From: Candidatus Kaiserbacteria bacterium
Lineage (GTDB): Bacteria > Patescibacteriota > Minisyncoccia > Phycocordibacterales > UBA2100
Length of the DNA stretch: 60,294 nt
Reading direction: 5' to 3'
Assembly (NCBI GenBank): GCA_016217965.1
Contig: JACRFI010000002.1
Span: 1 to 60,294 of the forward strand
The notes beneath the pieces are model-generated. The model made no database searches. It saw only the letters and a program-made list of their open reading frames with translations, and had not been told where the DNA came from. The translations under genes were made by a program, and so were the position numbers. Within the stretch, counting starts at the first letter, position 1, and every line of letters begins with the position of its first letter. This document shows, in pieces, positions 542 through 25,893 of the stretch.

Positions 542-2200
542 ATGGCAGCTAAAAAAGTAATTTTTGACGCGGAGGTACGAGGCGCCCTCAAGAGAGGAGT
601 GGATATCGTCGCAGGCGCTGTGCGCGTGACGCTTGGCCCACGAGGGAGGAATGTCGCACTTGGTAAATCATGGGGAGGCCCTACTATCACGAACGACGGC
701 GTTTCTATCGCGAAAGAAATCGAACTTGCAGATAAGTTTGAGAACATGGGTGCGGCTATCGTGAAAGAAGTTGCCACGAAAACGAACGACAAAGCGGGCG
801 ATGGCACTACAACTGCAGTCGTTCTCACTCAGGCGATAGTGCATGAAGGCCTGAAGCGCACGGCGCTTGGGGCGAATGCGATGATGGTTCGCCGTGGCAT
901 CGAAAAGGCTGCAAAAGACGCCGTTGAGCAGCTTCGAAAAGATGCACGGGAAGTTAAGGGCAAAAACGAAATACGCCAAGTGGCATCGATTTCTGCAGAA
1001 TCAGAGGAGCTCGGAAAGACGATTGCGGATGTTGTTGAGAAAGTAGGAAAAGATGGCGTTGTTACCGTCGAGGAATCGCAGACAACGGAGACGAGCTACG
1101 AGTATGTAGAGGGACTTGAATTCGACCGCGGCTACGTTTCTGCGTACATGATAACCAATGCCGACAGAATGGAGGCGGAGATGCGCGATGCTCACATAAT
1201 GATCACAGATAGGAAGATCTCAACCGTCAAAGAAATATTGCCGCTTCTCGAAAAATTGGCGCAATCTGGGAAGCGCGACCTCCTCATCATTGCAGATGAC
1301 GTCGAGGGTGAGGCGCTTGCAACGTTCATCGTTAATAAATTGAAAGGGGCGTTCAATGTGCTCGCGGTCAAAGCACCGGGATACGGCGATAGGAAGAAAG
1401 ATTTGCTCCAGGACATTGCCATCACTGTTGGTGCGCAGGTAATTTCAGAGGACCTTGGCATCAAATTGGAGAATGCGGATCTCTCAATGCTCGGCAGGGC
1501 AAATCGTGTCGTTGCAACAAAAGATTCGACAGTCATCGTAGGCGGCAAAGGCAAGAAATCTGAGATCGAAGCTCGCGTCACGAGCCTTAAGAAGCAGGCG
1601 GAAAATACAGATTCTAAATTCGATAAAGAGAAAATCGACGAGCGTATTGCGAAGCTCTCTGGTGGAGTTGCAGTCATCCGTGTTGGTGCCGCAACAGAAA
1701 CCGAGATGAAGTATCTCAAGGACAAGATAGAGGATGCAGTGAACGCGACCAAGGCGGCTATTGCGGAAGGCATCGTATCTGGCGGAGGTTCAGCTCTCGC
1801 AAAGGTTGGAGAGAAACTTTCCCGCAAAGTCGACCCGAAGGCGCATGATGAGCACACGATAGGGTATCGTATCCTTCTCACCGCGCTTTCTGCTCCACTT
1901 CTTCAAATCGCAAAGAATTCGGGACGTGAAGACGGACCAGTCGTTCTTCAGGAAATCATCAAGAAGGGTGGAAACTTCGGCTACAATGCCGCAAGCGAAT
2001 CTGTTGATGCTGAGATAGTAGACATGTTCGAAGCAGGCATCATTGACCCAGTGAAAGTAACGCGTAGCTGCGTTGAAAATGCAGCATCAGCTGCTGCAGT
2101 TCTTCTCACTACAGAAGCGGCGGTTGCGGACGAACCCGAAGACAAGAAAGCGGCACCTGCTGGAGGTATGCCAGGGGGGATGGGAGGGGAAGACTACTAG
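542..2200 (+). CDS. groEL: chaperonin GroEL
   Basis: 552 aa. AGDGTTTA motif, full-length Cpn60 similarity, and a GGM-like C-terminal tail (GGMPGGMGG). Confidence 0.97.
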   Translation: MAAKKVIFDAEVRGALKRGVDIVAGAVRVTLGPRGRNVALGKSWGGPTITNDGVSIAKEIELADKFENMGAAIVKEVATKTNDKAGDGTTTAVVLTQAIVHEGLKRTALGANAMMVRRGIEKAAKDAVEQLRKDAREVKGKNEIRQVASISAESEELGKTIADVVEKVGKDGVVTVEESQTTETSYEYVEGLEFDRGYVSAYMITNADRMEAEMRDAHIMITDRKISTVKEILPLLEKLAQSGKRDLLIIADDVEGEALATFIVNKLKGAFNVLAVKAPGYGDRKKDLLQDIAITVGAQVISEDLGIKLENADLSMLGRANRVVATKDSTVIVGGKGKKSEIEARVTSLKKQAENTDSKFDKEKIDERIAKLSGGVAVIRVGAATETEMKYLKDKIEDAVNATKAAIAEGIVSGGGSALAKVGEKLSRKVDPKAHDEHTIGYRILLTALSAPLLQIAKNSGREDGPVVLQEIIKKGGNFGYNAASESVDAEIVDMFEAGIIDPVKVTRSCVENAASAAAVLLTTEAAVADEPEDKKAAPAGGMPGGMGGEDY

Positions 2201-2227
2201 CATTCCGTAGGCTGACAAGACAGAAAA

Positions 2228-2260
2228 CACCCCTATCGACCTCGTAGGTCGATAGGGGTG
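2228..2260. repeat. REP-like perfect palindrome (copy 1), probably also the bidirectional terminator between groEL and the RAYT gene
   Basis: cacccctatcgacc-tcgta-ggtcgataggggtg forms a 14-15 bp perfect stem followed by tttatt. The core atcgacctcgtaggtcgat recurs at 2773-2793 and, inverted, at 2976-3000. Confidence 0.75.
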
Positions 2261-2261
2261 T

Positions 2262-2957
2262 TTATTCGTGCAGCAGGTCTTTAATTGGTTCAATATTTAC
2301 ATCCTCAAGGTAACGAGCGATATCCTTCTTGTAGTTTCTATGTTCATCTCCGAAAAGATCAGTTGAGATTATCGAAGGGAAATTCGATCTGCCAGAATAG
2401 TCTTGAAAGCTGCTCCATCGATAATTTTCGAGATGTTTCAAAGCAGCAGGCGGATTTTTAACCGTCAAATCGCGCCATTGATCCGCGCCTTTCAAGAAAT
2501 CGAGCGGATTCAAATGAATGTAGTTCATAATGTGCATAAAGTGTGCGTCAGTGGCAATTCGTACTTTTTTCGTTCGTCCTTGAAACAACGTTCCCGCTCG
2601 TTTGTATCGTTCGTTGAAATATTTTGCATAACCGACATTGAGTTTCATCAAAAACTTTGTGATTCCGTTGTCGACTCTGGACGAGAGCAGTAAATGGTAA
2701 TGATTGCCCATAAGACACCAGGCATGTATATCCACGATTTGTTTTCTCTTGTCAGGCTTATATCCATCTTTATATCGACCTCGTAGGTCGATAGATTCCA
2801 CAGATTTGGTTGTACGCGAGTAAAAGTATTCGGTGTTCTCGGCTGGTTTTGAGTCGTTGAAGATAAATAGATCGTGGACAAAACGGTGCCGATCTTGATC
2901 ATCGAGAAATATTGTTCGCTTATCAACACCGCGATTAAGAACATGGTAAAGCTCCAT
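2262..2957 (-). CDS. REP-associated tyrosine transposase (RAYT; IS200/IS605-like Y1 HUH transposase)
   Basis: 231 aa. YHVLNRG...IF N-terminus, HUH motif in CLMGNHYHLLL, and catalytic-Tyr region NYIHLNP. Flanked by inverted copies of one palindrome. Confidence 0.8.
   Translation of the reverse strand: MELYHVLNRGVDKRTIFLDDQDRHRFVHDLFIFNDSKPAENTEYFYSRTTKSVESIDLRGRYKDGYKPDKRKQIVDIHAWCLMGNHYHLLLSSRVDNGITKFLMKLNVGYAKYFNERYKRAGTLFQGRTKKVRIATDAHFMHIMNYIHLNPLDFLKGADQWRDLTVKNPPAALKHLENYRWSSFQDYSGRSNFPSIISTDLFGDEHRNYKKDIARYLEDVNIEPIKDLLHE
2773..2793. repeat. REP-like palindrome (copy 2) lying inside the RAYT coding sequence
   Basis: tatcgacc-tcgta-ggtcgata, same core and loop orientation as copy 1. 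Encodes ...SIDLRGRY... of the RAYT. Confidence 0.65.
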
Positions 2958-2975
2958 ATGTGAGATCGATTATGT

Positions 2976-3000
2976 CATATCGACCTACGAGGTCGATATG
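2976..3000. repeat. REP-like palindrome (copy 3), inverted relative to copies 1 and 2
   Basis: catatcgacc-tacga-ggtcgatatg. The loop tacga is the reverse complement of tcgta. Sits 19 nt upstream of the RAYT start codon. Confidence 0.75.
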
Positions 3001-3060
3001 TTATCCACTGAATACTTTGCAAGAGGAGGGACGAGCGACTTCCTCTTGTAGAATTGGGGC

Positions 3061-3615
3061 ATGCAGCCGGAGCATAAAACCCCAGAGCATTTTTTGGGCG
3101 AATTGTTCGTTCTTGCGAGCGCAAGTTTGCTTCTCGTTTTTATTCTCCAGATCCCACCTACACAGGCTGCGCAAGGCTCGGGAAATATTGCGTGTAAAGG
3201 CACAGCAAAAAATTATAAATGCAATTACAAGGACAAAGGTTGCCAGAAAAAAGATAAGAATAAAGGGCAGCCGTACAAAAAAGATTTGCCATGCCAAGAG
3301 ACATGTGGCAAAAGCGGCGGAGTAGCTAAGGGCAAATGTGTGTTTGAAGGGACGGGGCGTTGTAAAACAACGACAACATGCCAAGGGAAAGTTCCGAAGA
3401 AGGTTGATCCAAGCGGGAATCCAAAAAAAGAGGAAGGGAAGGGGGGAGAGGGAATGCCTAAGTTGCCGGATCCGCCGAAGGGGGACGAGAAGAAACCTGA
3501 GCAACCAAAAAAAGATGACCAGAAAGAAAATGCTGTGTGCCAGTACAGTTGGCTCACAGAATCGCAGAGACAAGCTCTAAAATGCCCGCCGGCAAATACC
3601 ACCACACAAAGCTGA
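3061..3615 (+). CDS. small secreted Lys/Cys-rich protein, paralogous to the head of the giant protein at 5667
   Basis: 184 aa. The N-terminal hydrophobic segment HFLGELFVLASASLLLVFILQIPPTQAAQG aligns by eye with HFFGLLLMLLSISLLLALIVEIPTSRAANA of the 1918-aa ORF. Carries 10 Cys in a very K-rich mature part. Confidence 0.6.
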   Translation: MQPEHKTPEHFLGELFVLASASLLLVFILQIPPTQAAQGSGNIACKGTAKNYKCNYKDKGCQKKDKNKGQPYKKDLPCQETCGKSGGVAKGKCVFEGTGRCKTTTTCQGKVPKKVDPSGNPKKEEGKGGEGMPKLPDPPKGDEKKPEQPKKDDQKENAVCQYSWLTESQRQALKCPPANTTTQS

Positions 3616-3698
3616 GAACGATGGAGGCGTTAAAATCAGGCCGTGCTGCAGCAAAATGCGGGCGCCGACAGTGTCTGGAAGAAGCTGCTGGATTGCAT

Positions 3699-4823
3699 CT
3701 AGCGAGCATCTTGCCGACGCTCCGCTTCCTCAATGCCGATAGCAAGGTTTGGTTCTTTGTCGTGTAATCCGAATTCTTGCCCAAGTTCATGTTCCCGGAA
3801 AAGGGAATAGGACTTGCGCATCGCGTCTGGCTTTTGGAAGAACGCATGTGCGCGCGCTGACTCGTTCAGGTCTGTATGACGCATGACTGGCCCTACAGAT
3901 TTCCAACCGTCCTTCGTGAGTACCACAGCGTGTCCGCCTGAAATACCCTCGGGCAGCAGCTCTCCATTTTCATTTAGTCTTGCTTCGGTTGAGCGAAATG
4001 AGATCATGTATGCGTCTTCAGGTACCGTGTACTGTGCGGTTGGAACGGGCATCGCAAAGGACGCATAGAAACCCGGCTCCCCATCCTTCCGCACCCAGTA
4101 CACACCCACAGGCTCACCCAGGACGCTTGCATCTGTGACGCTCGAGTCAAACACGGGAAGCTGTTCCGGGCTGGGTATTTCCCCGTCTTTCGGCCGCCGA
4201 ATCGAATTATCGAATCTTTCGCCCTCTGGTGTGAAGAATGGCTTCGCGAATCTTTCTGTTGCTATTTTCACATGATGTCCAGGAGCAACAAAAAGCGGCT
4301 CAAATTCTCCCGCTTCGTTCTCGACATTGGCATAGTATCCATTACTGAATCCATCGGCGCCTTCTTGTGTCTCAAAGGTGAGCGCCTCCGCAGCTATCTG
4401 GAGCGGTGTGATATCCGATTTTCCAGCTAACTCCGGAGGCAGCGTCGACGCCAGCCCTCTGTTATTTAAGGCATCAGTTAAATTTTCTGACGCAGTTTCG
4501 ACTATCTCCAAAACGTGCTTCCGTACGTCATTGTCGGTGTTTTCGTCGGTCAGGCACTTGTAGTATTTCCCTCCTTTCTGAAGGGCGTGCTTTATGAAAG
4601 TCATCTGCTTTTCCAGTGGGATACTGTTGTGCAAAATCCCGGCTTCGAATTCTGGGAACGAGAGGAGCTTCTTTTGCACCTCTGCCGGCACGTGCTTGAA
4701 CGCTCGCGCCGGCGGGGCTTGCAGCTCTGGCGTTTTTTCTTTTGCAGCTGCGCCTCCAGCAGCGATTCCCAGCGCTGCTGCTCCTCGTGTCGCGATTTTT
4801 CTCAAATTCTTGAAGTGGTCCAT
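3699..4823 (-). CDS. hypothetical exported protein
   Basis: 374 aa ORF. The N-terminus RKIATRGAAALGIAAGGAAA is signal-like. No family recognised. Co-directional with 4839-5456. Confidence 0.55.
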   Translation of the reverse strand: MDHFKNLRKIATRGAAALGIAAGGAAAKEKTPELQAPPARAFKHVPAEVQKKLLSFPEFEAGILHNSIPLEKQMTFIKHALQKGGKYYKCLTDENTDNDVRKHVLEIVETASENLTDALNNRGLASTLPPELAGKSDITPLQIAAEALTFETQEGADGFSNGYYANVENEAGEFEPLFVAPGHHVKIATERFAKPFFTPEGERFDNSIRRPKDGEIPSPEQLPVFDSSVTDASVLGEPVGVYWVRKDGEPGFYASFAMPVPTAQYTVPEDAYMISFRSTEARLNENGELLPEGISGGHAVVLTKDGWKSVGPVMRHTDLNESARAHAFFQKPDAMRKSYSLFREHELGQEFGLHDKEPNLAIGIEEAERRQDAR

Positions 4824-4838
4824 GGAGAAGCGGTTTTT

Positions 4839-5456
4839 CTAGCTTACCGCAGATGATCCGTCGTGAGGTTGAGGAGTTGTGGGGTTCTTTTCTTCTTCAA
4901 TTCTATTTTCCAATATCCACCGCGTGAGCGCATTAAGAATGTCGCTCTCGGGATATTTCATATTGTAACGGTCCATGCCAAACAGATCCCTCACTCGCGC
5001 CGTAAGTTTCTTAAGGTTTTTCTCAAGTTCAATTTCATCTTGCGCAGAATCTGTGCCCTTGACAGAAGACTGATATCCGGAGCGAAGGTCTTCGGAAAGA
5101 GTCTTCAATATACCCATCAATTCCGGTAGCTTTTTGTCCCATTGTTCATTTGAGAAGGTTTCTTTGAAAGAGCCGAGCGCATATGCCGCGGGTTTCTCTT
5201 GTTTCGAATTCTCCTTTAGCATCTTTTTCACCTCATCGTGTGCGTCGTCTACCGCTTTCCGCCATCTACCGAGCGCGTTCTCGAACTGTTTTACTGTCGG
5301 ACTTTTTTCCGGTTGATGGGCGGGGTCTTCATACGATTGGCGAGGTTTTGGGTGTACTTGTTCTACGGAGGGTGCAGCAATTCCCGCTTGCGCTGCGAAA
5401 ATCTGCGCCCCTGCCACTACACCTCTCGCAAGTACATCAAACCCCTTTCGCTTCAT
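4839..5456 (-). CDS. hypothetical exported protein
   Basis: The ORF track gives 4839-5498. The start was moved to MKRKGFDVLARGVVAGAQIFAAQAGIAAP (signal-peptide-like), because the upstream 14 codons overlap a repeat terminus. Confidence 0.5.
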   Translation of the reverse strand: MKRKGFDVLARGVVAGAQIFAAQAGIAAPSVEQVHPKPRQSYEDPAHQPEKSPTVKQFENALGRWRKAVDDAHDEVKKMLKENSKQEKPAAYALGSFKETFSNEQWDKKLPELMGILKTLSEDLRSGYQSSVKGTDSAQDEIELEKNLKKLTARVRDLFGMDRYNMKYPESDILNALTRWILENRIEEEKNPTTPQPHDGSSAVS

Positions 5457-5468
5457 GACAAAAGTGTA

Positions 5469-5594
5469 CCCGGTAGTGAAATTTCGGCTAGTGTACATCT
5501 GTGACTATGTTTCTGTCGCGATTTTCATGTAGATGCAATTGGTAATTCGTCAACCGAAGCGCCTGCGGCGCAAGCCGAAATTCTACTAACCGGG
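5469..5594. repeat. TIR-bounded intergenic element, copy E1
   Basis: The termini cccggtagtgaaatttcggc ... gccgaaattctactaaccggg are inverted repeats. A second copy lies at 15707-15839 with the two termini swapped. Confidence 0.65.
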
Positions 5595-5666
5595 TGTAGC
5601 ATGCGAGCGCGGCGTGGACAGTGGATCTTAAGCTTGGTTTTGCTTGTACAATAGGGAGACATAGCC

Positions 5667-8600
5667 ATGTTTGTTAAGTCTCATAGGGAGGGACATTTTT
5701 TTGGGCTGCTTTTGATGCTTCTAAGCATCAGCCTTTTGCTTGCACTGATTGTCGAGATACCTACTTCAAGAGCTGCGAATGCTCCAATGGGAGATCCAAG
5801 TCCTCAGTGCATGGGAGATTACTGCACATTCAAACCTTTTAAAGGGAGTCCGTATCTTACAGGTAGTTGTGCGGAACCTAAGCAAGGGGAAAAACCGACG
5901 AAAGATGGTCTCATTGGGAAACCATGTCAGGTCACAAAAAATGTTACGACATGCACCGGAAAGTGTCTTGGCGAGCAACCACTTTGCGGTAATGCTACTT
6001 CTTGCAATGGCGAAAAAACGAAAGATGCAAAAGAAACCGAAAAGAAAGCGATAGAGGACTATGAGGACAACCAACAGAAAGCATCGGAAAAACCCAAACA
6101 AGCACCTGAAAGTCCCAACGACTCTGGAGGAGATGCACCGAAAGAAGACTCACAGCAACCGGGCAACAAAGGTCCGCAAACAGGCATGGAGCCTGATTTT
6201 TCCAAATATGGAGAATGGTCGCAGCCGCCACAGCAAAGCCCGCCTTCGAACTCGCCGCCGAGTAGCTCTCCTGATTTTAAATTTAGCGATTTTGGGGAAA
6301 GAGGCAGCATTCAGCCGTCGCAAACGGATGAGAGGTTCAGTGATTTCGGCGAGGGTGGCAACCCTCCACAGTCGGGAAAAACGGGTCCGCAGCCGAGTAC
6401 GTTTGGAAATCCTCCGCCTCAGGGTAGTGGGGGCGACGATTCGCAGGGGGACGGTATTGGCGATAAGCTCGGCGAGATCGCATCCAAAGCAAAGGATGCG
6501 TTAAAAGATTCTGCGACGGATTTTGGTGAACTTCTCGATGACCTAAAAAAGTGGTTGGAAGATTTGAGAGAGCAGTTGAAAGGTGAAGTGGAGAAACCAT
6601 CACCGACTCCGTCGATTGGAGATGAGATTGCAAAGGGAGAAACAAAACCAGAGTTAGATCCCTCTGGGGCGAAACGAGAAAGACTGGATAAAGGCACGAT
6701 CAATTCTGGGAAAGGTGCCAATGTCTGCGCCTTGGGAGTTTGCGGGAAACAATTTACAAGAGATCAGTTGAATAATTTAAAAGGAAAAATTATTCCGGGC
6801 GTGAGGACATCAAAGTTTAATGAAGTTGAGGGAACTGCATATGGAGGAAAAAATAATCCGAATGCGTTTACGACGGCAAGTAAAGAGTTTCCGGCGGGGG
6901 CACGTATCTTGGAATATAACCTAAAGACAGGCGATACAGTGGCAGTGAGTGTCAACGATACAGGTCCATTTGTTGCGGGACGCTATCTTGATACAACTCC
7001 AGCGGGGTTGAACGCCGCAAAGTTGGGAGATTTAAGCAATCCCGATGTTGCATACATGGGGCAAACTGGACCGACGGGATATATGGGTAAATATAGCAGC
7101 TTCGATGACGCAATTGCTGCGTATGAGGCGAGACAAGGTGTTGGTAGTGGTCCGTATTCATCTCCTGTCGCAAGCACTTTGCCGCCATTCAGCCCGCCTC
7201 CGGTAAATTATCCCGGTCCATCGTTCACGAATGAGACTGCGCCCGATTCTTGGTATGACAATTCGGGATGGGATTATTCCGGTTTTGAGAATGTGACGGA
7301 TTGGAATGACTTGTCGAGCACCTATGTGCAGGAAGAAGGTTTGTATTCAGGGCAGCAGGGTGGGCAAGAGCTCGGGAGTGACCCCGATCCAGGATTTGAA
7401 AATGAGACAGGTGGCAATGATCCAGACCCGGGATTCGAGAATGAGGTGGATGGTAATGATCCTGATCCAGGATTTGAAAACGACCTGCCGCCCACTGTAC
7501 CTGGTGCCCGTCAGCTTGGCGATGAGTTGCCAGTCGAAGGCTTTAGACCAGACCCAGGTTTCGAGAACTATTTGGGCAATGACCCTGATCCCGGATTCGA
7601 AAACGAGCAGGTGGGTAATGATCCAGACCCTGGGTTTGAAAATGAGATAGATGGCAATGACCCTGACCCTGGTTTCGAGAACGATGCCGATTTTGACTCA
7701 GAGCAGGAACGGCTTAGTGAACTTGAACGAGCAGGAAAAGAGTTGCAACGACAGGAGGACGAAACCTTTGCAAGTACTATGGCTAGAAATCTCCAAGACT
7801 GGACGGAGCAAGCATTTGCGAGCGACATGGCGCGAAATATCCAAGAGTGGACAGAGACACGGCTTGCGGAAATACAGCAAGCAGCGATTGACAGACTGAG
7901 TGGGGACACGTGGGAGAAATATCTTGATTGGGATTATGGAGAGCCGACTCCGGAAGGCGATGATGTGGCTGAGCAACCGGGTGACCAGTTTAAGCAAAAG
8001 GATACGTTTGATCCCGAAGAAGAGCGCTTGGCAGAGCAAAAGAGCCTGGGAGATGAATTGCAGCGGCAAGCCGAAGAGAAAGCAGCAGAAAAAGAGAAGA
8101 GAGCAGAGGAGATAGCAAAAAATCTCGACAATGAAGATGTCGAGAGAGGGAAGGAAATGTCTCAACCGGAGGATGAGGTCGCGAAACAAGCACGACAAGA
8201 ACAGCAGAAGAAGGAAGAAGAGGAAAAGCGAGCCGCAAAACAGAAAGAAGTCGATGAGGCGATGAAAAAGAGCGCGGAAGCCGATAAGGTGAAAGAGGAG
8301 GCACAAAAACGCGCGGAGGCGGCTGATAAAAGGATAGAGGAAAGAAGCAAGGCACTAAGCGATGCCACGGAAAAGAAGAAGAAAGCAGAAGAGGCGGCGA
8401 AGAAAAGTGGTGGCGCACTTAAGCAAGCAAAAGATAATTTGAACGAGAATGTAAATGGCATCAAAAATCTAAAAGGTGCTGCTGAACGGGGGCTGCGTAC
8501 GGCGGAGGAGGTGGGCAAACAGACAGGAGACGAGGATCAGGTAAGAAGCAAAGCGCGTGCCGCGATAGGGCGAATTGACACGGACCCTCTTCGGGACGCG

Positions 8601-11423
8601 GCAGAAAGCCCATTGCTGTCCCAGAAGCAAAAAGATAGCCTTATTGGTACTGCTAATCGGGTAGACAGAAATAGTGAACGGATAGAAACCTTGGGTACGA
8701 ACGGAGGGTCTGTTGCCGAGATGAGAAGTCTCGCGAGTAGATCAATTGATGATTTGGGAGGGGCTCTTTCAACAGCGCAAGCTGGCTTAAAAAATGAAAA
8801 CACAACGCTCACAGTTCAGGCTGCAAGTGACGCACGGGCACTCAGTGTTGCCACAGCAGAATTTAACAATGCTGGGAAGTCACTGTGGTCCTCTGCAATC
8901 TCTGCAGATAGAGCATGGAGTTCCTACTATGAAGCGGACGAGGCATCATTGAATGCATACATAGAGTCGTGGAAAGTCTCGGGTGAGGGCTGGGATCTTG
9001 GTGACATACAAACCTATACTCCTGGACTTCCTGGATCGGGAGATATAGTGCCAGGATTTGTCGCTCCGCCTACCGACCAAGGGGATCTTCTTAGTATGGA
9101 TTCTTCTGCATGGAATTACGACGCTGAAGGTTGGGTCAAGACCGATTGGGATAGCGAGTCCGTGTTGAAGGTGACGGAAGATAAAGTATTCGAGTCCATA
9201 CTTGGAGAAGATACGCGAGCTTGGCAGCAGGTCGAACAAATGCTTGCTGATGAGCAAGAACAAGCCATACAGAGATTTCTTAAGCGATGGGAAAATGAAC
9301 CAGAAAACTGGGAAACAGCGGTAGATCCTTGGCGCCCGCTTTCCGCTGCAGCTCAGGAGAAAGCTGATGAATTGCAAAAAAAGATTGCTGCGGAGCATGA
9401 AAAGATACGAGCCGCTAAGGCGCGGCTTGAAGCGGGATATGGAACTGATTTTGAAAAAATCCCGACTCGAAAATTATTTGGGGAGTCAGAAGCGAACAAA
9501 TGGCGAGACGATCTCTGGACTGCACAAAAAGACTTGGCGCAATACGAAGCCGATCTAGCAAAGGTTAAGAGAGACGATATTGATGCCGGATACATTGACA
9601 CGGCAGGTGAAATGAACAAGGCGGATCTGGCTGCGCGAGATGCTCTCTCGGGGCAATTACGAGAGCACGAGGAAAAACTGGAATCGGTTATTGCAGCGGA
9701 GAGGCAAGAACGCAACAACGTAGTCCAGCAATATATAGATGACAAGCGTATGACGAGAGATATGTTAGAGGCTGTGACAAAGGAAAGCCGAGGAATAACT
9801 GAGGGAGCGTTAGGAAAGGATTGGGAGAAAGGGAAGTTTTTCGGATTTGCACGTGACCTGCAATATTTGCAATTAGCTCGGGAGGATGCGCTGATACGGT
9901 CCGACGGGTGTGGCGAAAATTGTGCGATAAAACTATATCCGGAAGGATCGCAGCCACCAACGCAGTGGGATAGGGCTGTTGCCGCAGTTAAGGCATGTTT
10001 TGGTTTCTGCGGTGATGCGACTCCAACTCAAATTCCGACCGAAGTTCCCACAACAGATTGGTCAGCGTATAAGGATTCAGATGTTCTATCGTACAGACCT
10101 GAATCACCGCTCGACCATGATATCCCTGGAGATGATGTTGCGGAGCAGCCAGGAAGAATTTTCGACGATGGACAGCTGGATCAACCGCATGATTATGATG
10201 GCGACGAAGAATATGCAAAGTTAAACAATGAGCAGAAAGAGAACGCGATACGTGCATTGCAAGATCAATATAAGGAAGCCTATGCCGAATTCAAAAATGC
10301 TGATCGTAACGATACGCAGAAATTGTTTAGCGCACTAAGAGCGCAAAATGATCGAAATGAGTTTTTTGCGAGGCTTCAGGAAGATCAAAGCTATCAAGAA
10401 TACATGAAGAATAGACCGATAACGGTGTCAGATTTGCCCGATGGTGATGACCTCGAGGACAATGAAATTTTCGGGGTTTCGTATAACAAAGAGAGTGCAA
10501 AATTAATGGAGGAATTAGAGACGTGGATCAAGGACGACTGGGATAAACATTACAAGGACGTACCGCCTGAACCTCCAACGAGATCTGTTGCTCCGTCTGC
10601 GACGAAAGTAGAGCCACCAGATCCGTTTCCCGCTGATGCGACCGATGTGCCGGAAAATGTAAAGAGGCCGCCGAAAGACGAGCCGGATTTTCCTGCGGAT
10701 GCGACTGATGTGCCGGAGAGCGTGAAGCGACCTCCGAAAGCCGAGACTCCTCCTCCTGCTGCCGCTAAAACGCCACCGACGCCAGGCCCTACAGCTTCGG
10801 GGCCCGGTCCAGGCCCTTCGGGAGGCAATGCAGACGCGAGTGGCTCTGGCTCTGGTTCTGGGGGAGGTCTTGGCGGAATCTTTGAAAAGCTGATGAATGC
10901 GCTCAAAGATTTCTTTAAACCAAAAGAGCAAAAGCAGAACCAGCAACAACAGCAAGCGCAGCAAGGGCAGCAGACGCCACCAGCGATAGCCTCTATCTTT
11001 GCGCGCCCACCGACGGTCAAGAAAGGTGAGAAGACACGTTTGATATGGGGAAGTGTGAACACAACGAGTTGCATCGTATTTGATGAACTTAGCAATGAGG
11101 TTGCGAGAGGCACTTCTGACGGAGCTGCGACAACGACCGCACTTTTTGCGACGACAAAATTCAAAGTTACTTGCCAGGGGAAAAATGGCTCCCAAGCCTC
11201 AGCAAGCACACAGGTAACTGTCACGGCAGCAACTCCTACGTTAAATAAAACAAAAACGAATACTACAACCACAAAAACCAACACAAACACGCAAACGAAA
11301 ACGCAAACTAATACGAACACAAACACAGAGACTCAAACAAATACCGGGGCCAAGAATAGTACTGACGAGATATGCCACCCATCACTGCCGTACGATGAAT
11401 TTGTCGCGTGCGTGCTTCGTTGA
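5667..11423 (+). CDS. giant (1918 aa) modular surface/secreted protein with an RlpA-like DPBB module
   Basis: Single uninterrupted ORF with these parts:
- signal anchor, aa 11-33
- 8-Cys head, aa 48-113
- P/S/G-rich linker
- aa ~385-456 EGTAYGG..TASKEF..VSVNDTGPFVAGRYLDTTPAGLNAAKLG, resembling the RlpA/DPBB signature
- 8x DPDPGFEN, aa 571-672
- long E/K/A-rich coiled-coil-like region
- several internal duplications
- beta-rich Ig-like ~75 aa followed by a T/N/Q low-complexity tail. Confidence 0.8.
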   Translation: MFVKSHREGHFFGLLLMLLSISLLLALIVEIPTSRAANAPMGDPSPQCMGDYCTFKPFKGSPYLTGSCAEPKQGEKPTKDGLIGKPCQVTKNVTTCTGKCLGEQPLCGNATSCNGEKTKDAKETEKKAIEDYEDNQQKASEKPKQAPESPNDSGGDAPKEDSQQPGNKGPQTGMEPDFSKYGEWSQPPQQSPPSNSPPSSSPDFKFSDFGERGSIQPSQTDERFSDFGEGGNPPQSGKTGPQPSTFGNPPPQGSGGDDSQGDGIGDKLGEIASKAKDALKDSATDFGELLDDLKKWLEDLREQLKGEVEKPSPTPSIGDEIAKGETKPELDPSGAKRERLDKGTINSGKGANVCALGVCGKQFTRDQLNNLKGKIIPGVRTSKFNEVEGTAYGGKNNPNAFTTASKEFPAGARILEYNLKTGDTVAVSVNDTGPFVAGRYLDTTPAGLNAAKLGDLSNPDVAYMGQTGPTGYMGKYSSFDDAIAAYEARQGVGSGPYSSPVASTLPPFSPPPVNYPGPSFTNETAPDSWYDNSGWDYSGFENVTDWNDLSSTYVQEEGLYSGQQGGQELGSDPDPGFENETGGNDPDPGFENEVDGNDPDPGFENDLPPTVPGARQLGDELPVEGFRPDPGFENYLGNDPDPGFENEQVGNDPDPGFENEIDGNDPDPGFENDADFDSEQERLSELERAGKELQRQEDETFASTMARNLQDWTEQAFASDMARNIQEWTETRLAEIQQAAIDRLSGDTWEKYLDWDYGEPTPEGDDVAEQPGDQFKQKDTFDPEEERLAEQKSLGDELQRQAEEKAAEKEKRAEEIAKNLDNEDVERGKEMSQPEDEVAKQARQEQQKKEEEEKRAAKQKEVDEAMKKSAEADKVKEEAQKRAEAADKRIEERSKALSDATEKKKKAEEAAKKSGGALKQAKDNLNENVNGIKNLKGAAERGLRTAEEVGKQTGDEDQVRSKARAAIGRIDTDPLRDAAESPLLSQKQKDSLIGTANRVDRNSERIETLGTNGGSVAEMRSLASRSIDDLGGALSTAQAGLKNENTTLTVQAASDARALSVATAEFNNAGKSLWSSAISADRAWSSYYEADEASLNAYIESWKVSGEGWDLGDIQTYTPGLPGSGDIVPGFVAPPTDQGDLLSMDSSAWNYDAEGWVKTDWDSESVLKVTEDKVFESILGEDTRAWQQVEQMLADEQEQAIQRFLKRWENEPENWETAVDPWRPLSAAAQEKADELQKKIAAEHEKIRAAKARLEAGYGTDFEKIPTRKLFGESEANKWRDDLWTAQKDLAQYEADLAKVKRDDIDAGYIDTAGEMNKADLAARDALSGQLREHEEKLESVIAAERQERNNVVQQYIDDKRMTRDMLEAVTKESRGITEGALGKDWEKGKFFGFARDLQYLQLAREDALIRSDGCGENCAIKLYPEGSQPPTQWDRAVAAVKACFGFCGDATPTQIPTEVPTTDWSAYKDSDVLSYRPESPLDHDIPGDDVAEQPGRIFDDGQLDQPHDYDGDEEYAKLNNEQKENAIRALQDQYKEAYAEFKNADRNDTQKLFSALRAQNDRNEFFARLQEDQSYQEYMKNRPITVSDLPDGDDLEDNEIFGVSYNKESAKLMEELETWIKDDWDKHYKDVPPEPPTRSVAPSATKVEPPDPFPADATDVPENVKRPPKDEPDFPADATDVPESVKRPPKAETPPPAAAKTPPTPGPTASGPGPGPSGGNADASGSGSGSGGGLGGIFEKLMNALKDFFKPKEQKQNQQQQQAQQGQQTPPAIASIFARPPTVKKGEKTRLIWGSVNTTSCIVFDELSNEVARGTSDGAATTTALFATTKFKVTCQGKNGSQASASTQVTVTAATPTLNKTKTNTTTTKTNTNTQTKTQTNTNTNTETQTNTGAKNSTDEICHPSLPYDEFVACVLR

Positions 11424-11459
11424 TGCGTGGAGACGGGGCTATGATATAGTGCCCACTGT

Positions 11460-11708
11460 ATGTTAACGAGTAAGGATATAGATAAGATCATCGCAGTTGT
11501 CGCCACAAAGGAAGATGTTCGTCAACTTAACGAGCGAGTCGATAAACTCGAGCGAACACAGCAACAAATCCTGTCGGCAATCGACCGACTTGCCACCGCG
11601 ATAGAAAAACAAAATCTTCAAGTCGCAGCAATGGCAATGCAATTAGATCGCCATGAAAAGTGGATACGCCAGATAGCGAAACAGGCGGGAGTCAAATTAT
11701 CAGACTAG
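11460..11708 (+). CDS. small coiled-coil protein, hypothetical
   Basis: 82 aa ORF with a heptad-like sequence (VRQLNERVDKLERTQQQILSAIDRLATAIEKQ). No family recognised. Confidence 0.45.
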   Translation: MLTSKDIDKIIAVVATKEDVRQLNERVDKLERTQQQILSAIDRLATAIEKQNLQVAAMAMQLDRHEKWIRQIAKQAGVKLSD

Positions 11709-11719
11709 CAATATCAATT

Positions 11720-12277
11720 ATGGCACTCATCATCGTCTTAGGAGCAGCGGCCCTTCTTATCATCTGGGTTATTTTTGCCTACAACAGGCTGGTGAGCCTC
11801 ACGAATCGTTCAGAAGAAGCTTGGTCGGATATTGATGTGCAATTGAAGCGCCGATACGACCTCATCCCGAATCTTGTTGAGATGGTAAAAGGATATGCTT
11901 CGCACGAAGCGGGTACTTTGCAGAAGGTGACCGAGGCGCGCACGAAAGCAATGGGTGCGCAGACGGTAGGAGAGCATGCGGCGGCGGAAAATATGCTGAC
12001 CGGTGCGCTAAAATCTTTGTTTGCGGTTTCGGAGAGCTATCCAGACCTTAAAGCGAACACTAATTTCGTAGAACTCCAGCGCGAACTATCCGATACGGAA
12101 AATAAGATACAGGCAGCGCGGCGCTTCTATAACACTGTCGTGCAAGATCTTCAGAACGCGCTTGAGCAATTCCCGTCAAATATCATCGGAAACATCTTTG
12201 GCTTTAAGACGAGAGAATTCTTCGCGCTCGGAGAAAACGAACAGGCGGCAAAGGATCCCGTTAAGGTTCAATTTTAG
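11720..12277 (+). CDS. lemA: LemA family protein
   Basis: The start was moved to MALIIVLGAAALLIIWVIFAYNRLV (TM helix plus YNRL). WSDIDVQLKRRYDLIPNLV and ARRFYN are typical LemA motifs. Confidence 0.88.
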   Translation: MALIIVLGAAALLIIWVIFAYNRLVSLTNRSEEAWSDIDVQLKRRYDLIPNLVEMVKGYASHEAGTLQKVTEARTKAMGAQTVGEHAAAENMLTGALKSLFAVSESYPDLKANTNFVELQRELSDTENKIQAARRFYNTVVQDLQNALEQFPSNIIGNIFGFKTREFFALGENEQAAKDPVKVQF

Positions 12278-12307
12278 GGTATAGCCACTAGGGTTTAGGG
12301 TATAGGG
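12275..12307. repeat. period-7 TAG array (TAGGGTA-like x5), left inverted repeat of the four-helix-bundle cassette
   Basis: tagggta tagccac tagggtt tagggta taggg has TAG every 7 nt. The first TAG is the lemA stop codon. It matches 27 of 33 positions of the reverse complement of 12680-12712. Confidence 0.8.
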
Positions 12308-12308
12308 C

Positions 12309-12668
12309 ATGCAATCCTATCGAGAACTCATCGTTTGGCAGAAAAGTAGAAAGTTTGTAACTGAAGTTTATCGTCTTACCGAGAACTTCCCGAAGTCGGA
12401 AATGTTTGGCCTTACAAGCCAAATGCGACGCGCGGTTGTTTCAATACCTGCGAACATTGCGGAAGGATATGCGCGTAAGCACAGAGCAGAATATATTCAA
12501 TTTTTGAGGATAAGTTATGGATCGGGAGCCGAACTTGAGACATTTTTGCTGCTTATTGAGGATTTGAAATATGTTACGGCAGAAGATTTGCGGTCTATCA
12601 GCGAAAAGTTGCAAGAAATTATGAGGATGCTAAATAAATTGATTGATTCTCTGAAGCCAAAGTCTTAA
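12309..12668 (+). CDS. four-helix-bundle protein (23S rRNA intervening-sequence protein family)
   Basis: 119 aa. YRELIVWQKS..., SQMRRAVVSIPANIAEGY and GSGAELETFL are hallmark motifs of this family. Confidence 0.85.
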   Translation: MQSYRELIVWQKSRKFVTEVYRLTENFPKSEMFGLTSQMRRAVVSIPANIAEGYARKHRAEYIQFLRISYGSGAELETFLLLIEDLKYVTAEDLRSISEKLQEIMRMLNKLIDSLKPKS

Positions 12669-12679
12669 TTTGCATTTAA

Positions 12680-12712
12680 CCCTATTGGCTATACGCTAGT
12701 GGCTAAACCCTA
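12680..12712. repeat. period-7 CTA array, right inverted repeat of the four-helix-bundle cassette
   Basis: CTA occurs at 12682, 12689, 12696, 12703 and 12710. The array is the reverse complement of the left array. Confidence 0.8.
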
Positions 12713-12717
12713 TCTCT

Positions 12718-13623
12718 ATGGCATCTTTGTATACTCAGCAAGGTAAGAATATCCGAAAGACGTGGCTTCTCATGACCGCGTTCTTCCTGATGGTCATCGC
12801 GATCGGATATTTCATTGCGTGGTATCTCCAGGAGCCGGGGCTTTTGTATGTTGCGGTTGCGTTCTCCGTCATGATGAATATCACTGCGTATTGGTTTTCT
12901 GACAAGATTGCGCTTGCCGCGACGGGGGCGAAAGAGGCCGACCCGAATGAGTTTCGCGAGCTGCACCGAATTGTTGAGAATCTCGCGATAACCGCCGGGC
13001 TTCCGAAGCCGCGTGTGTACGTTATTAACGACCCGGCGCCAAATGCGTTTGCTGCCGGAAGAAATCCGGAGCACGCCGTTGTCAGCGTCACCACAGGCCT
13101 CTTATCGATCTTAGATAGAAGTGAGCTAGAGGGCGTGATAGCACACGAGCTCTCGCACATTGGGAACCGAGACATCCTCGTCATGACAGTAGCGGTCGTT
13201 CTCGCGGGCTTTATTTCTGTGATAGCAGACCTATTCCTCCGCATGACATTCTGGGGCGGTGGGCGAGACAGAGACAACAAGGGGAATGCGCTTATTATGA
13301 TTCTTGGGCTTGTCGGCGTTATTCTCGCACCTATCGCGGCGCAGCTCATCCAACTCGCAATTTCGCGGAAACGCGAATTTTTGGCGGACGCTTCCGGGGC
13401 TTTGCTTACGAGGTATCCAGATGCACTTGCATCGGCGCTCCAGAAAATTTCCTCATACGACGCGCCGATGCAGCGGGCAAGCCACGCGACAGCGCATCTG
13501 TTCATTTCGAATCCGTTCGGTGCAGGTGCACAAGGTGGAAAATTCATCGCAAAGCTTTTCTCCACACATCCGCCAGTTGGGGAACGTGTTACGGCTCTCA
13601 TGGGGATGCGCGGCAAGGTGTAA
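12718..13623 (+). CDS. htpX: M48-family zinc protease HtpX
   Basis: 301 aa. HELSHIGNRD (HExxH), four TM segments and the STHPPVGERV tail. Confidence 0.9.
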   Translation: MASLYTQQGKNIRKTWLLMTAFFLMVIAIGYFIAWYLQEPGLLYVAVAFSVMMNITAYWFSDKIALAATGAKEADPNEFRELHRIVENLAITAGLPKPRVYVINDPAPNAFAAGRNPEHAVVSVTTGLLSILDRSELEGVIAHELSHIGNRDILVMTVAVVLAGFISVIADLFLRMTFWGGGRDRDNKGNALIMILGLVGVILAPIAAQLIQLAISRKREFLADASGALLTRYPDALASALQKISSYDAPMQRASHATAHLFISNPFGAGAQGGKFIAKLFSTHPPVGERVTALMGMRGKV

Positions 13624-13629
13624 ACGCCT

Positions 13630-14169
13630 ATGAAAATCTCTCGCGGGAGATTCGTTCGCACGGATATCTGGCGGGAAGGAGAGTATCTCGATCTCTGGAG
13701 CGTGCCGCATTTCTTGTCGGGGATAATGACGGCGCTCGGTCTGTATCTATTGAATTTTCGCGGCATTTCCGCATTCGTAATCGCGTTCCTCATCTTTGTC
13801 GTGTATGAGATGTTCGAGGTAATCGCGAAGATAGAGGAAACGCGGATGAACCGAGCTCTGGATGTGGTGGTAGGGATGGTGAGTTTTGCACCGGCATTTT
13901 TTCTTTCTGCGGGATTTTCACAGACACAACTGTGGTTTACATTTTCTGCGGTCACTATCTTGGACGGAACCTTGAGCTATTTTGGTTGGCTTGCATCCAA
14001 GAAGGCATCGGTCTTGGAAGAGAATGTGCGGCGCGAGTTTGAATTGGAGCGCGCAAAAATGAAGGAACGCCGTGATCGTTTCCGCGAAAGGTTCCGCTTG
14101 CAGAAATCTCGCATGAGAAAACGGTGGTACGAGAGGAAGAGAAAAGATGCGACGTTCTCTCCGAAATGA
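13630..14169 (+). CDS. hypothetical membrane protein with a basic C-terminal tail
   Basis: 179 aa. About 4 hydrophobic helices followed by an R/K/E-rich tail (ERAKMKERRDRFRERFRLQKSRMRKRWYERKRK). Confidence 0.5.
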   Translation: MKISRGRFVRTDIWREGEYLDLWSVPHFLSGIMTALGLYLLNFRGISAFVIAFLIFVVYEMFEVIAKIEETRMNRALDVVVGMVSFAPAFFLSAGFSQTQLWFTFSAVTILDGTLSYFGWLASKKASVLEENVRREFELERAKMKERRDRFRERFRLQKSRMRKRWYERKRKDATFSPK

Positions 14170-14208
14170 TATAACTCTCTCGTCTTTGTTCTTTTTTGTT
14201 GATACTGC

Positions 14209-14295
14209 GGAGAGGTGGCTGAGTGGTCGAAAGCACACGTTTGGAGTACGTGCATCCGGGAAACTGGATCGAGGGTTCGAATCCCTCCCTCTCCG
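14209..14295 (+). tRNA. tRNA-Ser (GGA)
   Basis: Acceptor GGAGAGG/CCTCTCC, anticodon stem CACGT/ACGTG with loop TTGGAGT, long variable arm, T-arm GAGGG-TTCGAAT-CCCTC. No encoded CCA. Confidence 0.9.
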
Positions 14296-14331
14296 CAGTG
14301 TTTGCAATGGATTTCGAGCTATAATTCTCGG

Positions 14332-15159
14332 ATGGCATTCAAATATTTTTCACATAACGGCGAGTTGAAGCCCGCTTCTGAGGCGGTCATACCGCTTTCC
14401 AACATCGAGTATTCGTACGGATTCGGCGTCTACGAGACCATCCGAGTTGCGGACAAGATACCGTATTTCCTCCTCGACCATATCGAGCGTCTTGGAGAAT
14501 CGGCGCGCATCATTGGACTTGAGCATGGCTTTTCCGGCGAGCAGTTGGAAACGCATATCTTGGAGCTTATCAAAAAGAACGACGTCGAGACCGCGAATCT
14601 AAAGATACTTCTCATCGGGGCGAAGGAAAAAGAAAATGCCCAACTTTTTATACTGTGCTTGAATCCGCTCTTTCCGGATAAAAAACTCTACCGAGAGGGC
14701 GCAACGTTCGTCACGTACGAATACGAACGAGCTTTTCCGCATGCAAAAACATTGAACATGCTCCAGAGCTATCTGGCGTATCGGAAGGCCAAAGAGGCCG
14801 ATTGCTACGACGCACTTCTCATAAATCGGGAAGGCTGCATCACCGAAGGAACGCGCACGAACTTTTTCTGTATAAAAGGAAAGACGCTCATTACGCCGCC
14901 GGAGAGCGAGATACTCCTTGGGGTCACGCGAAAGGCAGTTCTCAAAGCCGCCACTCAGAATGGTTATGAGCTGGAGGAGAAGGTTGTCACGTGGGGCGAC
15001 TTGAGGAATGCAGACGGAGCGTTCGTCACGAGCACGTCGTCAAAAATAATCCCAGTTCGCCGCATAGACGACCAGGAATTTCACGGACCCGAAGCGCTGA
15101 AAGAATTGATGCGACTGTACGATGCATTTCTTGATACCTGTAATGGGAAGATGGAATAG
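14332..15159 (+). CDS. class IV (branched-chain/D-amino-acid) aminotransferase
   Basis: The track ORF begins inside the tRNA, so the start was moved to MAFKYFSHNGEL. YGFGVYETIR, EGTRTNFF and LLGVTRK fit fold-type IV PLP enzymes. Confidence 0.75.
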   Translation: MAFKYFSHNGELKPASEAVIPLSNIEYSYGFGVYETIRVADKIPYFLLDHIERLGESARIIGLEHGFSGEQLETHILELIKKNDVETANLKILLIGAKEKENAQLFILCLNPLFPDKKLYREGATFVTYEYERAFPHAKTLNMLQSYLAYRKAKEADCYDALLINREGCITEGTRTNFFCIKGKTLITPPESEILLGVTRKAVLKAATQNGYELEEKVVTWGDLRNADGAFVTSTSSKIIPVRRIDDQEFHGPEALKELMRLYDAFLDTCNGKME

Positions 15160-15201
15160 TGGCTATGGTATACTAGCTTTCTTAAAATCGAATTCGCTCA
15201 C

Positions 15202-15702
15202 ATGAAATACTTGCTTGCCGTCGTAATTATTCTTGCCGCGGGAGGCGTCTTTTTCTGGCAATACCAAAAAGCCGACGTGCCTCTCCAGGAATCGAATCAG
15301 CAACAAAATGCTGCCGGGAACCCATTTGGCGACGGCGCTCGAACTGTGGGGAACTTGGATGACGATGAGAATGAAACCGAAGATGAGGACGAAGACGGGA
15401 TGACCGGTACAAATGCGGGCGGAGGGACAGGAAGTACGGGAGGCGGGGGCACACCAGGTGCGATAGTGACAAGAGCAACTCTCAGCACACACAACAAAGT
15501 TGCAGACTGCTGGATCGCGTACAAGGGAGTCGTCTATGACATCACGAACTGGTTGCCGCGTCACCCTGGTTCCGCCGGTGCCATTGCGCCGTATTGCGGC
15601 AAAGCAGAGGAATTTTCGGCTGCATTTAATAAGCAGCACGGAACTAGCAAGGAAACCAGATTGAAACAAGAGGGGACTGTAGAAGGAACGCTTTCGAACT
15701 GA
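15202..15702 (+). CDS. membrane-anchored cytochrome b5-like heme-binding domain protein
   Basis: N-terminal TM helix, acidic/Gly-rich linker, then LSTHNKVADCWIAYKGVVYDITNWLPRHPG (cyt-b5 pattern). Confidence 0.7.
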   Translation: MKYLLAVVIILAAGGVFFWQYQKADVPLQESNQQQNAAGNPFGDGARTVGNLDDDENETEDEDEDGMTGTNAGGGTGSTGGGGTPGAIVTRATLSTHNKVADCWIAYKGVVYDITNWLPRHPGSAGAIAPYCGKAEEFSAAFNKQHGTSKETRLKQEGTVEGTLSN

Positions 15703-15706
15703 CATG

Positions 15707-15839
15707 CCCGGTAGTAGAATTTCGGCTTGTCTCATCTGAACAGATCAACGACAGTCAACTATGAATCAAAAGTGCAACATAGCGTGTTCTTACGACAGCG
15801 ACATTGCGCTGCGCGCCAGCCGAAATTTCACTAACCGGG
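15707..15839. repeat. TIR-bounded intergenic element, copy E2
   Basis: Termini cccggtagtagaatttcggc ... gccgaaatttcactaaccggg. The right terminus ends 2 nt before the ATG at 15841. Confidence 0.65.
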
Positions 15840-15840
15840 T

Positions 15841-16209: not shown

Positions 16210-16282
16210 TTACGCACACCAGATCCTGGCACTTCCAAGGGGAGCCAGATATGATTTCGGTATAGCGGGGTAATTTTTTTAT

Positions 16283-17139: not shown

Positions 17140-17145
17140 CACATT

Positions 17146-25854: not shown

Positions 25855-25893
25855 CAAAGAGCAATGCGATTTTGGGGCGGGAGTCAGACTTTG

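Follow-up and report, generated by a model that had tools for sequence, protein, structure and literature searches.

A 60,294-nt stretch of contig JACRFI010000002.1 from Candidatus Kaiserbacteria (the window) was analyzed for one open reading frame (ORF) encoding a 1918-aa protein (the giant), which had been predicted from its sequence to be a modular surface protein with a cell wall-active module and a candidate host-contact machine. We consider, with a probability of roughly 0.85, that this is a genuine gene for a Sec-exported giant, that it contains an RlpA-family double-psi beta-barrel (DPBB) which has kept all residues invariant in the family and is enlarged by a packed add-on, and that the rest of the protein is scaffold. 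The DPBB appears to be the only recognizable catalytic-type part; the scaffold would comprise an 8-Cys head, linkers, a nine-copy PxFxN array, an ER/K-type helix, a Trp-rich helical region and a C-terminal module (Table 1). The architecture is modular and, as the original prediction had judged, unusual.

Matches in PDB, Pfam and NCBIfam carry the assignment of the DPBB, as do a reciprocal search with a profile and the predicted fold; all of these agree with one another and with the RlpA-like module proposed earlier. The core matches Pfam DPBB_1 (PF03330; aa 381 to 443, E = 2.1e-5, 25.1 bits), TIGR00413 rlpA (aa 389 to 445, E = 1.8e-7, 31.3 bits) and PDB entry 4avr, the Pseudomonas aeruginosa protein PA4485 (E = 1.1e-8, gapless over 56 residues). 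A sensitive search with aa 335 to 499 against 1.84 billion cluster representatives retrieved 1802 proteins at E ≤ 1e-3, eight of which (the giant and P0003 to P0009) span all 165 residues, the remaining matches covering a core of about 65 residues only. A profile made from these eight members retrieved 2249 proteins at E ≤ 1e-5, with PF03330 present in all 120 of the matches listed, many of them named RlpA. The Pfam DPBB_1 cut-off is passed by P0002 (74.6 bits), P0006, P0008 and P0009, and the DPBB-bearing P0005 has a PG_binding_1 domain as well (67.6 bits). The extended module had no relative in 185,579 GTDB species representatives scanned with a 4-sequence alignment, and the add-on of about 70 residues appears, from these searches, to be the mark of a rare subfamily of eight clusters. 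By sequence significance, fold and catalytic residue, the core of the giant is a member of the RlpA-like DPBB family, albeit one lying below the curated cut-offs.

AlphaFold2 (AF2), run on a 68-sequence alignment, folded the whole module with high confidence (mean predicted local distance difference test [pLDDT] and predicted template modeling [pTM] scores are given in Table 1). The N-terminal extension (aa 335 to 380) is predicted as two helices flanking a hairpin in which C354 and C359 stand five residues apart, and the C-terminal extension (aa 466 to 492) as a strand and a helix; this family-specific add-on would pack against the barrel. In a Foldseek search of the PDB, the top match was again 4avr (target-normalized TM score of 0.83, root mean square deviation of 1.7 Å), followed by a cyanophage baseplate hub DPBB (8kea), kiwellins, expansins, loosenin and barwin; these matches span about 95 of the 165 module residues, with query-normalized TM scores of about 0.5. 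Among viral models (BFVD), the top matches were phage proteins named 'rare lipoprotein A'. Structure prediction combined with Foldseek, which had been suggested as a means of deciding between a DPBB and a 3D/expansin-like fold, points to a DPBB of RlpA type.

The module had been described as lacking the stretch of the RlpA signature between TASGE-F and the P-x-G strand. This deletion is an artefact, the alignments to both 4avr and Escherichia coli RlpA being gapless; the stretch appeared to be missing because TASKEF was aligned to TASGE-F. In the true register, TAYGG corresponds to TASGE and TTASKEFPAGA to TAAHRTLPFGA. All 12 columns that are invariant across the 68 aligned sequences, canonical RlpA domains included, are kept in the giant (A391, G393, A404, P409, G422, N430, D431, G433, P434, F435, R439 and D442), and D431 and D442 are invariant in 8/8 subfamily members as well as in 68/68 aligned sequences. 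The survival of the catalytic residues had been in question; the equivalent of the catalytic Asp, D442, is retained. In E. coli RlpA (362 aa, equal to the length of the NF007953 profile), S148 (RVISLS) presumably lies opposite D442 (GRYLDTT) without a gap. RlpA of P. aeruginosa has a catalytic Asp, and E. coli RlpA, in which Ser takes the place of this Asp, is inactive (PMC9712689). By alignment, D442 is the apparent equivalent of the RlpA catalytic Asp. Since all invariant residues, including the catalytic Asp, are kept, the module should bind the glycan strands of peptidoglycan and would probably cleave them, most likely as a lytic transglycosylase acting through D442. It is well supported that the giant is a peptidoglycan-directed exported protein.

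The ORF is a real gene rather than a chance open frame. That it runs uninterrupted over 1918 codons, as first described, is borne out by its frame, by the GGGAG site preceding it and by positional orthologues; the chance of 1918 stop-free codons is about 1e-40 under uniform codon use. The coding strand is purine rich (GC skew of +0.18 to +0.25 and AT skew of +0.19 to +0.30 across the gene), and the long antisense ORFs are an expected by-product of this. A promoter and terminator consensus scan around the gene performed no better than on shuffled sequence. A word-based search yielded two homologues, P0002 (1060 aa, annotated 'MAG: rare lipoprotein A', where MAG is a metagenome-assembled genome, from Parcubacteria group bacterium Gr01-1014_8) and P0003 (1722 aa); the same kind of search with the C-terminal 194 aa gave nothing at E ≤ 1e-3, and a metagenome scan added one good locus (L003) and one weak one. 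The orthologues have both ends of the giant in common, which argues against a fragmented ORF.

In the window and in four other contigs (the two homologue loci, L003 and L086), the gene occupies one chromosomal slot, downstream of GroES-GroEL and upstream of LemA-HtpX; in some loci, small exported ORFs and an IS200-like gene intervene between GroEL and the giant. Between loci, identity is 77 to 89% for GroEL, 81% for LemA and 71% for HtpX; for the giant, the alignment covers 30% of the length at 35% identity in L001 and 10% at 47% in L002, and orthologue lengths are 1060, 1248, 1722 and 1918 aa. By these alignments, the giant diverges far faster than its slot neighbors. It is also a mosaic, with a head like that of P0002, a DPBB module like those of P0003 and P0004 (55 to 60%), and a C-terminal module of Gly-rich stretch, amphipathic helix and Ig-like domain that recurs in neighboring giants devoid of a DPBB. 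P0002 is a positional orthologue, situated downstream of GroEL and an IS200-like gene. In common with the giant it has the signal peptide, 8-Cys head, linker, DPBB and FAxxMA..LQEWTE pair, along with PxFxN-type repeats, a charged helical region and an Ig-like domain at the C-terminus. Its DPBB, however, is a canonical RlpA domain without the add-on, the protein is half as long, and its middle region is for the most part unalignable.

Further giants occur in the related loci. Directly downstream of P0002, L001 encodes giants of 826 aa (7238-9718, +) and >2357 aa (10071-17143, +), both with the Cys-rich head design and the Gly-helix and Ig-like module found in the giant, and no recognizable enzyme domain was found in either. 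In L086, the GroEL-LemA slot holds two giants, of which the 1701-aa one (642-5747, +), upstream of P0005, combines a signal peptide with a Cys-rich head and, at its C-terminus, tandem Ig-like domains. The suspicion of an SLT lytic transglycosylase domain at aa 1188 to 1265 of this protein stays a weak hint (Pfam E = 0.055, no match in a PDB sequence search). Together, the proteins form a paralogous scaffold family whose members have a signal peptide and a Cys-rich head, then a long middle that is low in complexity or helical, and last the common C-terminal module; the DPBB is one possible payload.

Export of the giant is suggested by its lone N-terminal hydrophobic segment, its paired cysteines and the lack of any further segment able to span a membrane. 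The sole segment with a Kyte-Doolittle mean above 1.6 over 19 residues is at aa ~8 to 35, and on this scale no further transmembrane (TM)-capable segment was found elsewhere in the 1918-aa protein. The hydrophobic N-terminus named in the original prediction is thus present, but its description as a signal anchor gives way to that of a probably cleavable signal peptide, because the signal peptides of the relatives are classical, cleavable and of AxA type (...STAHA/AP, ...IAYA/SQ and ...PAAA/DF, the slash marking the cleavage site) and TSRA/ANA follows the h-region of the giant. Export would proceed through Sec with removal of this peptide, and the paired cysteines would be disulfide bonded outside the cell. 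All 18 Cys of the giant occur as close pairs. The head indeed contains eight of them, within aa 48 to 113, all eight being kept in P0002, and it gave no meaningful PDB sequence match and no Pfam match.

The remaining parts described for the protein were all recovered, some with a change of number or kind. The P/S/G-rich stalk is present by composition as a linker. The array announced as eightfold DPDPGFEN exists, but its make-up is six DPDPGFEN, one RPDPGFEN and two degenerate units (PSFTN at 518 and SGFEN at 538), and P0002 has PSFNN-type repeats at the equivalent position. All three internal duplications were found at the positions reported, the copies of GDDVAEQPG at aa 764 and 1488. The stretch described as E/K/A-rich and coiled-coil-like (aa 787 to 912) is highly charged as claimed, with 52 to 62% charged and 7 to 14% hydrophobic residues, 0.4 to 0.55 opposite-charge i/i+3,4 pairs per residue, and Pro/Gly at zero across aa ~850 to 912 and at 2 to 5% in the flanking part; the scarcity of hydrophobic residues and the density of opposite-charge pairs point, for part of the stretch, to an ER/K single alpha-helix and away from a coiled coil; as a helix, the stretch would measure about 19 nm. 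Together with the helical middle, it would serve as a spacer. The middle region contains a four-Cys cluster (C1415, C1419, C1444 and C1448) and a W.K.DWD..YKDV island common to the giant and P0002; 729 aa of it gave no meaningful PDB sequence match and no Pfam family. Toward the C-terminus, AF2 predicts the amphipathic helix at low confidence and, in agreement with the beta-rich Ig-like segment noted previously, an eight-strand beta-sandwich with a pLDDT above 93 for the Ig-like domain, which returned generic Ig-like matches with Foldseek (macroglobulin MG, SoxY, KIR and PKD-like) and is common to P0002, P0003, P0008, P0009 and the giants L1_826, L1_2389 and L086_1701. The T/N/K/Q tail, which ends on a Cys pair as described, is unique to the window orthologue; it and the Q-rich linker are disordered in the AF2 model.

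Table 1. Features of the giant gene and its product, in positions of the window (plus strand throughout; a slash marks the putative signal peptide cleavage site)
Feature	Residues (aa)	Position	Strand	Remarks
Complete ORF	1918 aa + stop	5667..11423	+	Frame +3; ATG at 5667; stop ends at 11423
Shine-Dalgarno-like GGGAG		5654..5658	+	8 nt 5' of ATG; read from sequence
N-terminal signal sequence	1-36	5667..5774	+	K4/R7 n-region; h-region aa 11-29; TSRA/ANA
8-Cys head	44-115	5796..6011	+	Cys 48, 53, 68, 87, 96, 100, 107, 113
P/S/G/Q-rich low-complexity linker	116-334	6012..6668	+	By composition; partly conserved in P0002 alignment
Extended DPBB module	335-492	6669..7142	+	AF2 mean pLDDT 90.8, pTM 0.87
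RlpA-type DPBB core	381-465	6807..7061	+	D431 (NDTGPF), D442 (GRYLDTT)
Array of 9 P/S-G/S-F-E/T-N short motifs	518-672	7218..7682	+	
Tandem FAS[TD]MARN[LI]Q[DE]WTE pair	701-730	7767..7856	+	At 701 and 717; kept in P0002
Highly charged E/K/R/A segment	787-912	8025..8402	+	Candidate ER/K single alpha-helix spacer
Mixed acidic, Trp-rich, probably helical middle region	913-1650	8403..10616	+	
Tandem 21-aa duplication with FPADATDVPE[NS]VKRPPK	1654, 1675	10626..10739	+	
Gly-rich stretch, then amphipathic helix GGIFEKLMNALKDFF	~1735-1748	10869..10910	+	Conserved in paralogous giants
Ig-like beta-sandwich	1774-1853	10986..11225	+	Conserved W1794, C1802, C1836
T/N/K/Q low-complexity tail with C-terminal Cys pair		11238..11420	+	C1903, C1915

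As to where the DPBB would act, we lean, at somewhat less than even odds, toward a site beyond the producer's own sacculus, where the cell meets a neighbor or host and where the DPBB would open the wall locally. This preference has three grounds: (i) what the paralogues share is the C-terminal module, and such a module is usually the attachment or sorting end; (ii) the scaffold is far longer than work inside a thin wall needs; and (iii) the giant evolves in the manner of exposed contact proteins. Because it is common to paralogous giants without a DPBB, the C-terminal module would be the likeliest attachment or sorting end, with the head and DPBB as the distal payload. The reading as a host-contact machine, which has already been proposed in the literature for Patescibacteria, is plausible. 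A bolder form of it, decidedly speculative and in our estimate rather unlikely, takes the GroEL-LemA slot as a hypervariable contact locus from which a stalked, enlarged RlpA-type enzyme cuts a window in host peptidoglycan. Fibrils would be attached through the common C-terminal Gly-rich helix and Ig-like module, the rigid ER/K helix and stalk would hold the head and DPBB tens of nanometers from the cell, the PxFxN array and the DPBB add-on would give specificity for the host wall, and host switching or an arms race would lie behind the fast mosaic evolution.

Several points tell against the assignment or against outward action: (i) the giant falls under the curated cut-offs of both Pfam (25.1 versus 28.8 bits) and TIGR00413 (31.3 versus 82.15 bits); (ii) in six of the eight subfamily members, Thr stands in place of the near-invariant Arg of NDRGPF; (iii) no known anchor motif (LPXTG with a TM segment, lipobox, SLH or the C-terminal domain of the type IX secretion system [T9SS]) was found in the giant; (iv) the Ig-like domain is not the extreme C-terminus, a 65-aa tail coming after it; (v) hosts of Kaiserbacteria might lack peptidoglycan; (vi) the organism's own peptidoglycan genes are present in the window (MurJ, Mur ligase, FtsA and a class IV aminotransferase); (vii) the giant is the only DPBB-encoding ORF of the window, with no second DPBB in the window or the related loci examined, so that a housekeeping role is quite possible; and (viii) the established role of RlpA is in the producer's own septal wall (PMC6895207, PMC9712689).

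The last three of these points also favor the foremost rival explanation, which we regard as unlikely but serious, namely, that the giant is a self-directed RlpA orthologue remodeling the producer's peptidoglycan, for daughter separation or to make room for surface structures, with the scaffold as a fast-drifting extension. Membership in the RlpA family fits this, as do the name of P0002 and its score on DPBB_1, and so does the single-copy, conserved position among the housekeeping genes for GroEL, LemA and HtpX in five contigs. On the other hand, the giant has neither a SPOR domain nor a lipobox; its ~1450 spacer residues, including a probable rigid helix of ~19 nm, would be unneeded in a thin sacculus; extreme divergence, length variation and domain mosaicism are typical of exposed surface proteins; and the paralogues carry the same scaffold without any enzyme domain.

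We think it quite unlikely that the DPBB is non-catalytic and binds glycan only, either as an anchor in the producer's own wall, with the Ig-like end as a distal adhesin tip, or as an expansin- or adhesin-like binder of host polymers. Expansins, kiwellin and loosenin, DPBB proteins that bind without lysis, do figure among the fold matches, E. coli RlpA is a structural protein without catalytic activity (PMC9712689), an RlpA has been reported to bind fibronectin (PMC11392263), the PG_binding_1 domain of P0005 is an additional wall-binding domain, and the NDRGPF Arg is replaced by Thr in most subfamily members. The reading is nonetheless made less likely by the invariance of both Asp residues, D431 and D442, which would be unexpected had catalysis been lost, and the giant has no expansin D2/CBM63 domain.

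It is very improbable that the ORF is an artefact, whether a chimera or collapse of the assembly, the remnant of a pseudogene or a purine-rich, non-coding stretch that stays open by chance. The window is a metagenomic contig and the gene does contain repeats and low-complexity DNA, but orthologues from independent assemblies share the N-terminal head and DPBB, the C-terminal Ig-like module and the slot. The PDPGFEN units are 71 to 88% identical in DNA and the 63-nt tandem pair of the FPADATDVPE[NS]VKRPPK region 76%; repeat copies differ at 12 to 39% of bases, which makes collapse unlikely. Since the DNA of the PDPGFEN repeats has diverged while the encoded peptide is identical, purifying selection on the peptide motif is indicated. 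The Shine-Dalgarno-like site, the two confidently folded domains and the very low odds of so long an open frame argue in the same direction. A phage origin, as a prophage tail, hub or lysin protein, is barely credible: RlpA-like DPBBs do occur in phage baseplate hubs (8kea_A) and other phage proteins (BFVD), and there is a match to PHROG 7930 (E = 4.3e-6), but the matches are limited to the DPBB core of ~60 to 95 residues, GroEL, LemA and HtpX rather than phage structural genes flank every locus, and the position is conserved across species.

The giant can be compared with several known systems. With septal-ring RlpA (P. aeruginosa PA4000) it shares the same DPBB core, colinear without gaps and with the family-invariant residues kept, and apparently export; it differs in having no lipoprotein signal or SPOR domain, in the ~70-residue add-on, and in that its DPBB is embedded ~350 residues into a 1918-aa fibrous protein of a probably monoderm bacterium belonging to the candidate phyla radiation (CPR). 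A bona fide septal-ring RlpA was accordingly rejected (no lipobox in aa 1 to 40, no SPOR [PF05036] at E ≤ 10, NF007953 at 18.9 versus 201 bits). The stand-alone RlpA-like DPBB PA4485 (4avr) is the best match in both sequence and structure, but it is a single domain of ~95 residues and the match spans about half of the extended module. RlpA-like DPBBs of phage tails (the hub of cyanophage A-1(L), 8kea; BFVD) use the same domain to breach walls, as the payload of a large, extended apparatus that acts on another cell's envelope; their context is viral and structural, and there is no homology to the giant beyond the DPBB core.

A likeness in concept, rather than a demonstrated homology, is found in other small host-dependent bacteria with very large exported murein-cleaving proteins. 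Giant wall-degrading proteins have been described in predatory Omnitrophota ('Archaeovorins'; bioRxiv 10.1101/2023.11.21.568195), and lytic transglycosylases of Patescibacteria have been proposed to compromise host envelopes (PMC11665869); the Omnitrophota giants belong to another phylum, are much larger and carry an SLT domain rather than a DPBB. Bacterial expansins (EXLX1), kiwellins, barwin and loosenin have the DPBB fold in common with the giant (Foldseek E of 1e-2 to 5e-4), but at 12 to 19% identity, and the giant has no D2/CBM63 and its signature is of RlpA type.

Other identities were considered and rejected. An EXLX1-type expansin is not indicated, Pfam giving no second expansin domain and the Foldseek expansin matches covering D1 only. 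For an MltA/3D lytic transglycosylase, no PF06725 or MltA-specific match was obtained at E ≤ 10, and there were distant fold matches to phage '3D' proteins. For a sortase-anchored LPXTG protein, the only candidate is an internal LPGSG at aa 1121, the sole hydrophobic segment lying at aa 8 to 35. A T9SS cargo is not supported either: TIGR04183 is absent, the sole NCBIfam matches at E ≤ 10 are to RlpA, and the 65-aa tail follows the Ig-like domain.

The window is a bacterial chromosome segment of Kaiserbacteria-like Paceibacteria (CPR/Patescibacteria). It encodes GroEL, LemA, HtpX, MurJ, LepA, LeuRS, a Mur ligase, FtsA, GyrA and seven tRNAs, and its GyrA is 81 to 85% identical to those of Candidatus Kaiserbacteria and Paceibacterota MAGs, several of them labeled as groundwater isolates. 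On the upstream side of the giant, an IS200-like Y1 transposase-family ORF adjoins GroEL both in the window (2262-2957, -) and in L001 (2359-3066), with 34% identity, and seems to be resident and conserved, not recently inserted. Two ORFs of 374 aa (3699-4823, -) and 219 aa (4839-5498, -), divergent from the upstream region of the giant, have N-terminal hydrophobic, signal-like segments; they had no Pfam match and no homologue in the related loci.

Downstream, an 82-aa ORF with predicted helical structure (11460-11708, +) begins 36 nt past the stop of the giant and is absent from L002, where LemA directly follows the giant. The listed GTG start of the LemA ORF overlaps this ORF, and comparison with L086 indicates that the true start is probably an internal Met. 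Between LemA and HtpX, 0.9 kb downstream of the giant, lies an ORF for a 119-aa 23S-rRNA-intervening-sequence protein (12309-12668, +; PF05635, 142 bits; bAvd-like, 43 bits), absent at that position in L002. bAvd is an accessory protein of diversity-generating retroelements (DGRs). The giant as a DGR target was rejected, as no template/variable repeat pair was found in the 60-kb window and none links the giant to another site; the immediate neighbors of the bAvd-like ORF, to which a systematic look for a reverse transcriptase was confined, are LemA and HtpX.

Elsewhere in the window, a 117-nt repeat (24554-24670 and 47058-47174, 90% identical) contains the long internal palindrome GGCATAA.TTTTTTGCCGTC ... 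GACGGCAAAA; one copy is upstream of tRNA-Arg and the other adjoins the FtsA gene, and a structured repeat element and a small RNA are both conceivable identities for it. A 57-nt repeat (24796-24852 and 25893-25949, 95% identical; palindrome GGGGAAC...GTTCCCC) lies ~30 to 40 nt downstream of tRNA-Arg and tRNA-Phe. Positions 36884-37876 (-) encode a protein of the class A beta-lactamase family (PF13354, 127 bits), within a reduced CPR genome.

To conclude, an orthologue of the giant was already annotated as 'rare lipoprotein A'; the novelty lies in the enlarged DPBB subfamily and in its having been fused into a hypervariable giant scaffold, as well as in the conserved GroEL-LemA slot, the common C-terminal module and the selected PxFxN motif array. 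The locus is a concrete, testable candidate for how ultra-small CPR/Patescibacteria attach to and feed from their hosts, and its conserved chromosomal slot makes alleles comparable across populations. The scaffold family with its common C-terminal module may define a mode of giant-protein display in monoderm-like cells. If the giant is instead the organism's own RlpA, it would show how, in reduced genomes, a housekeeping wall enzyme came to be joined to a huge scaffold that evolves fast.

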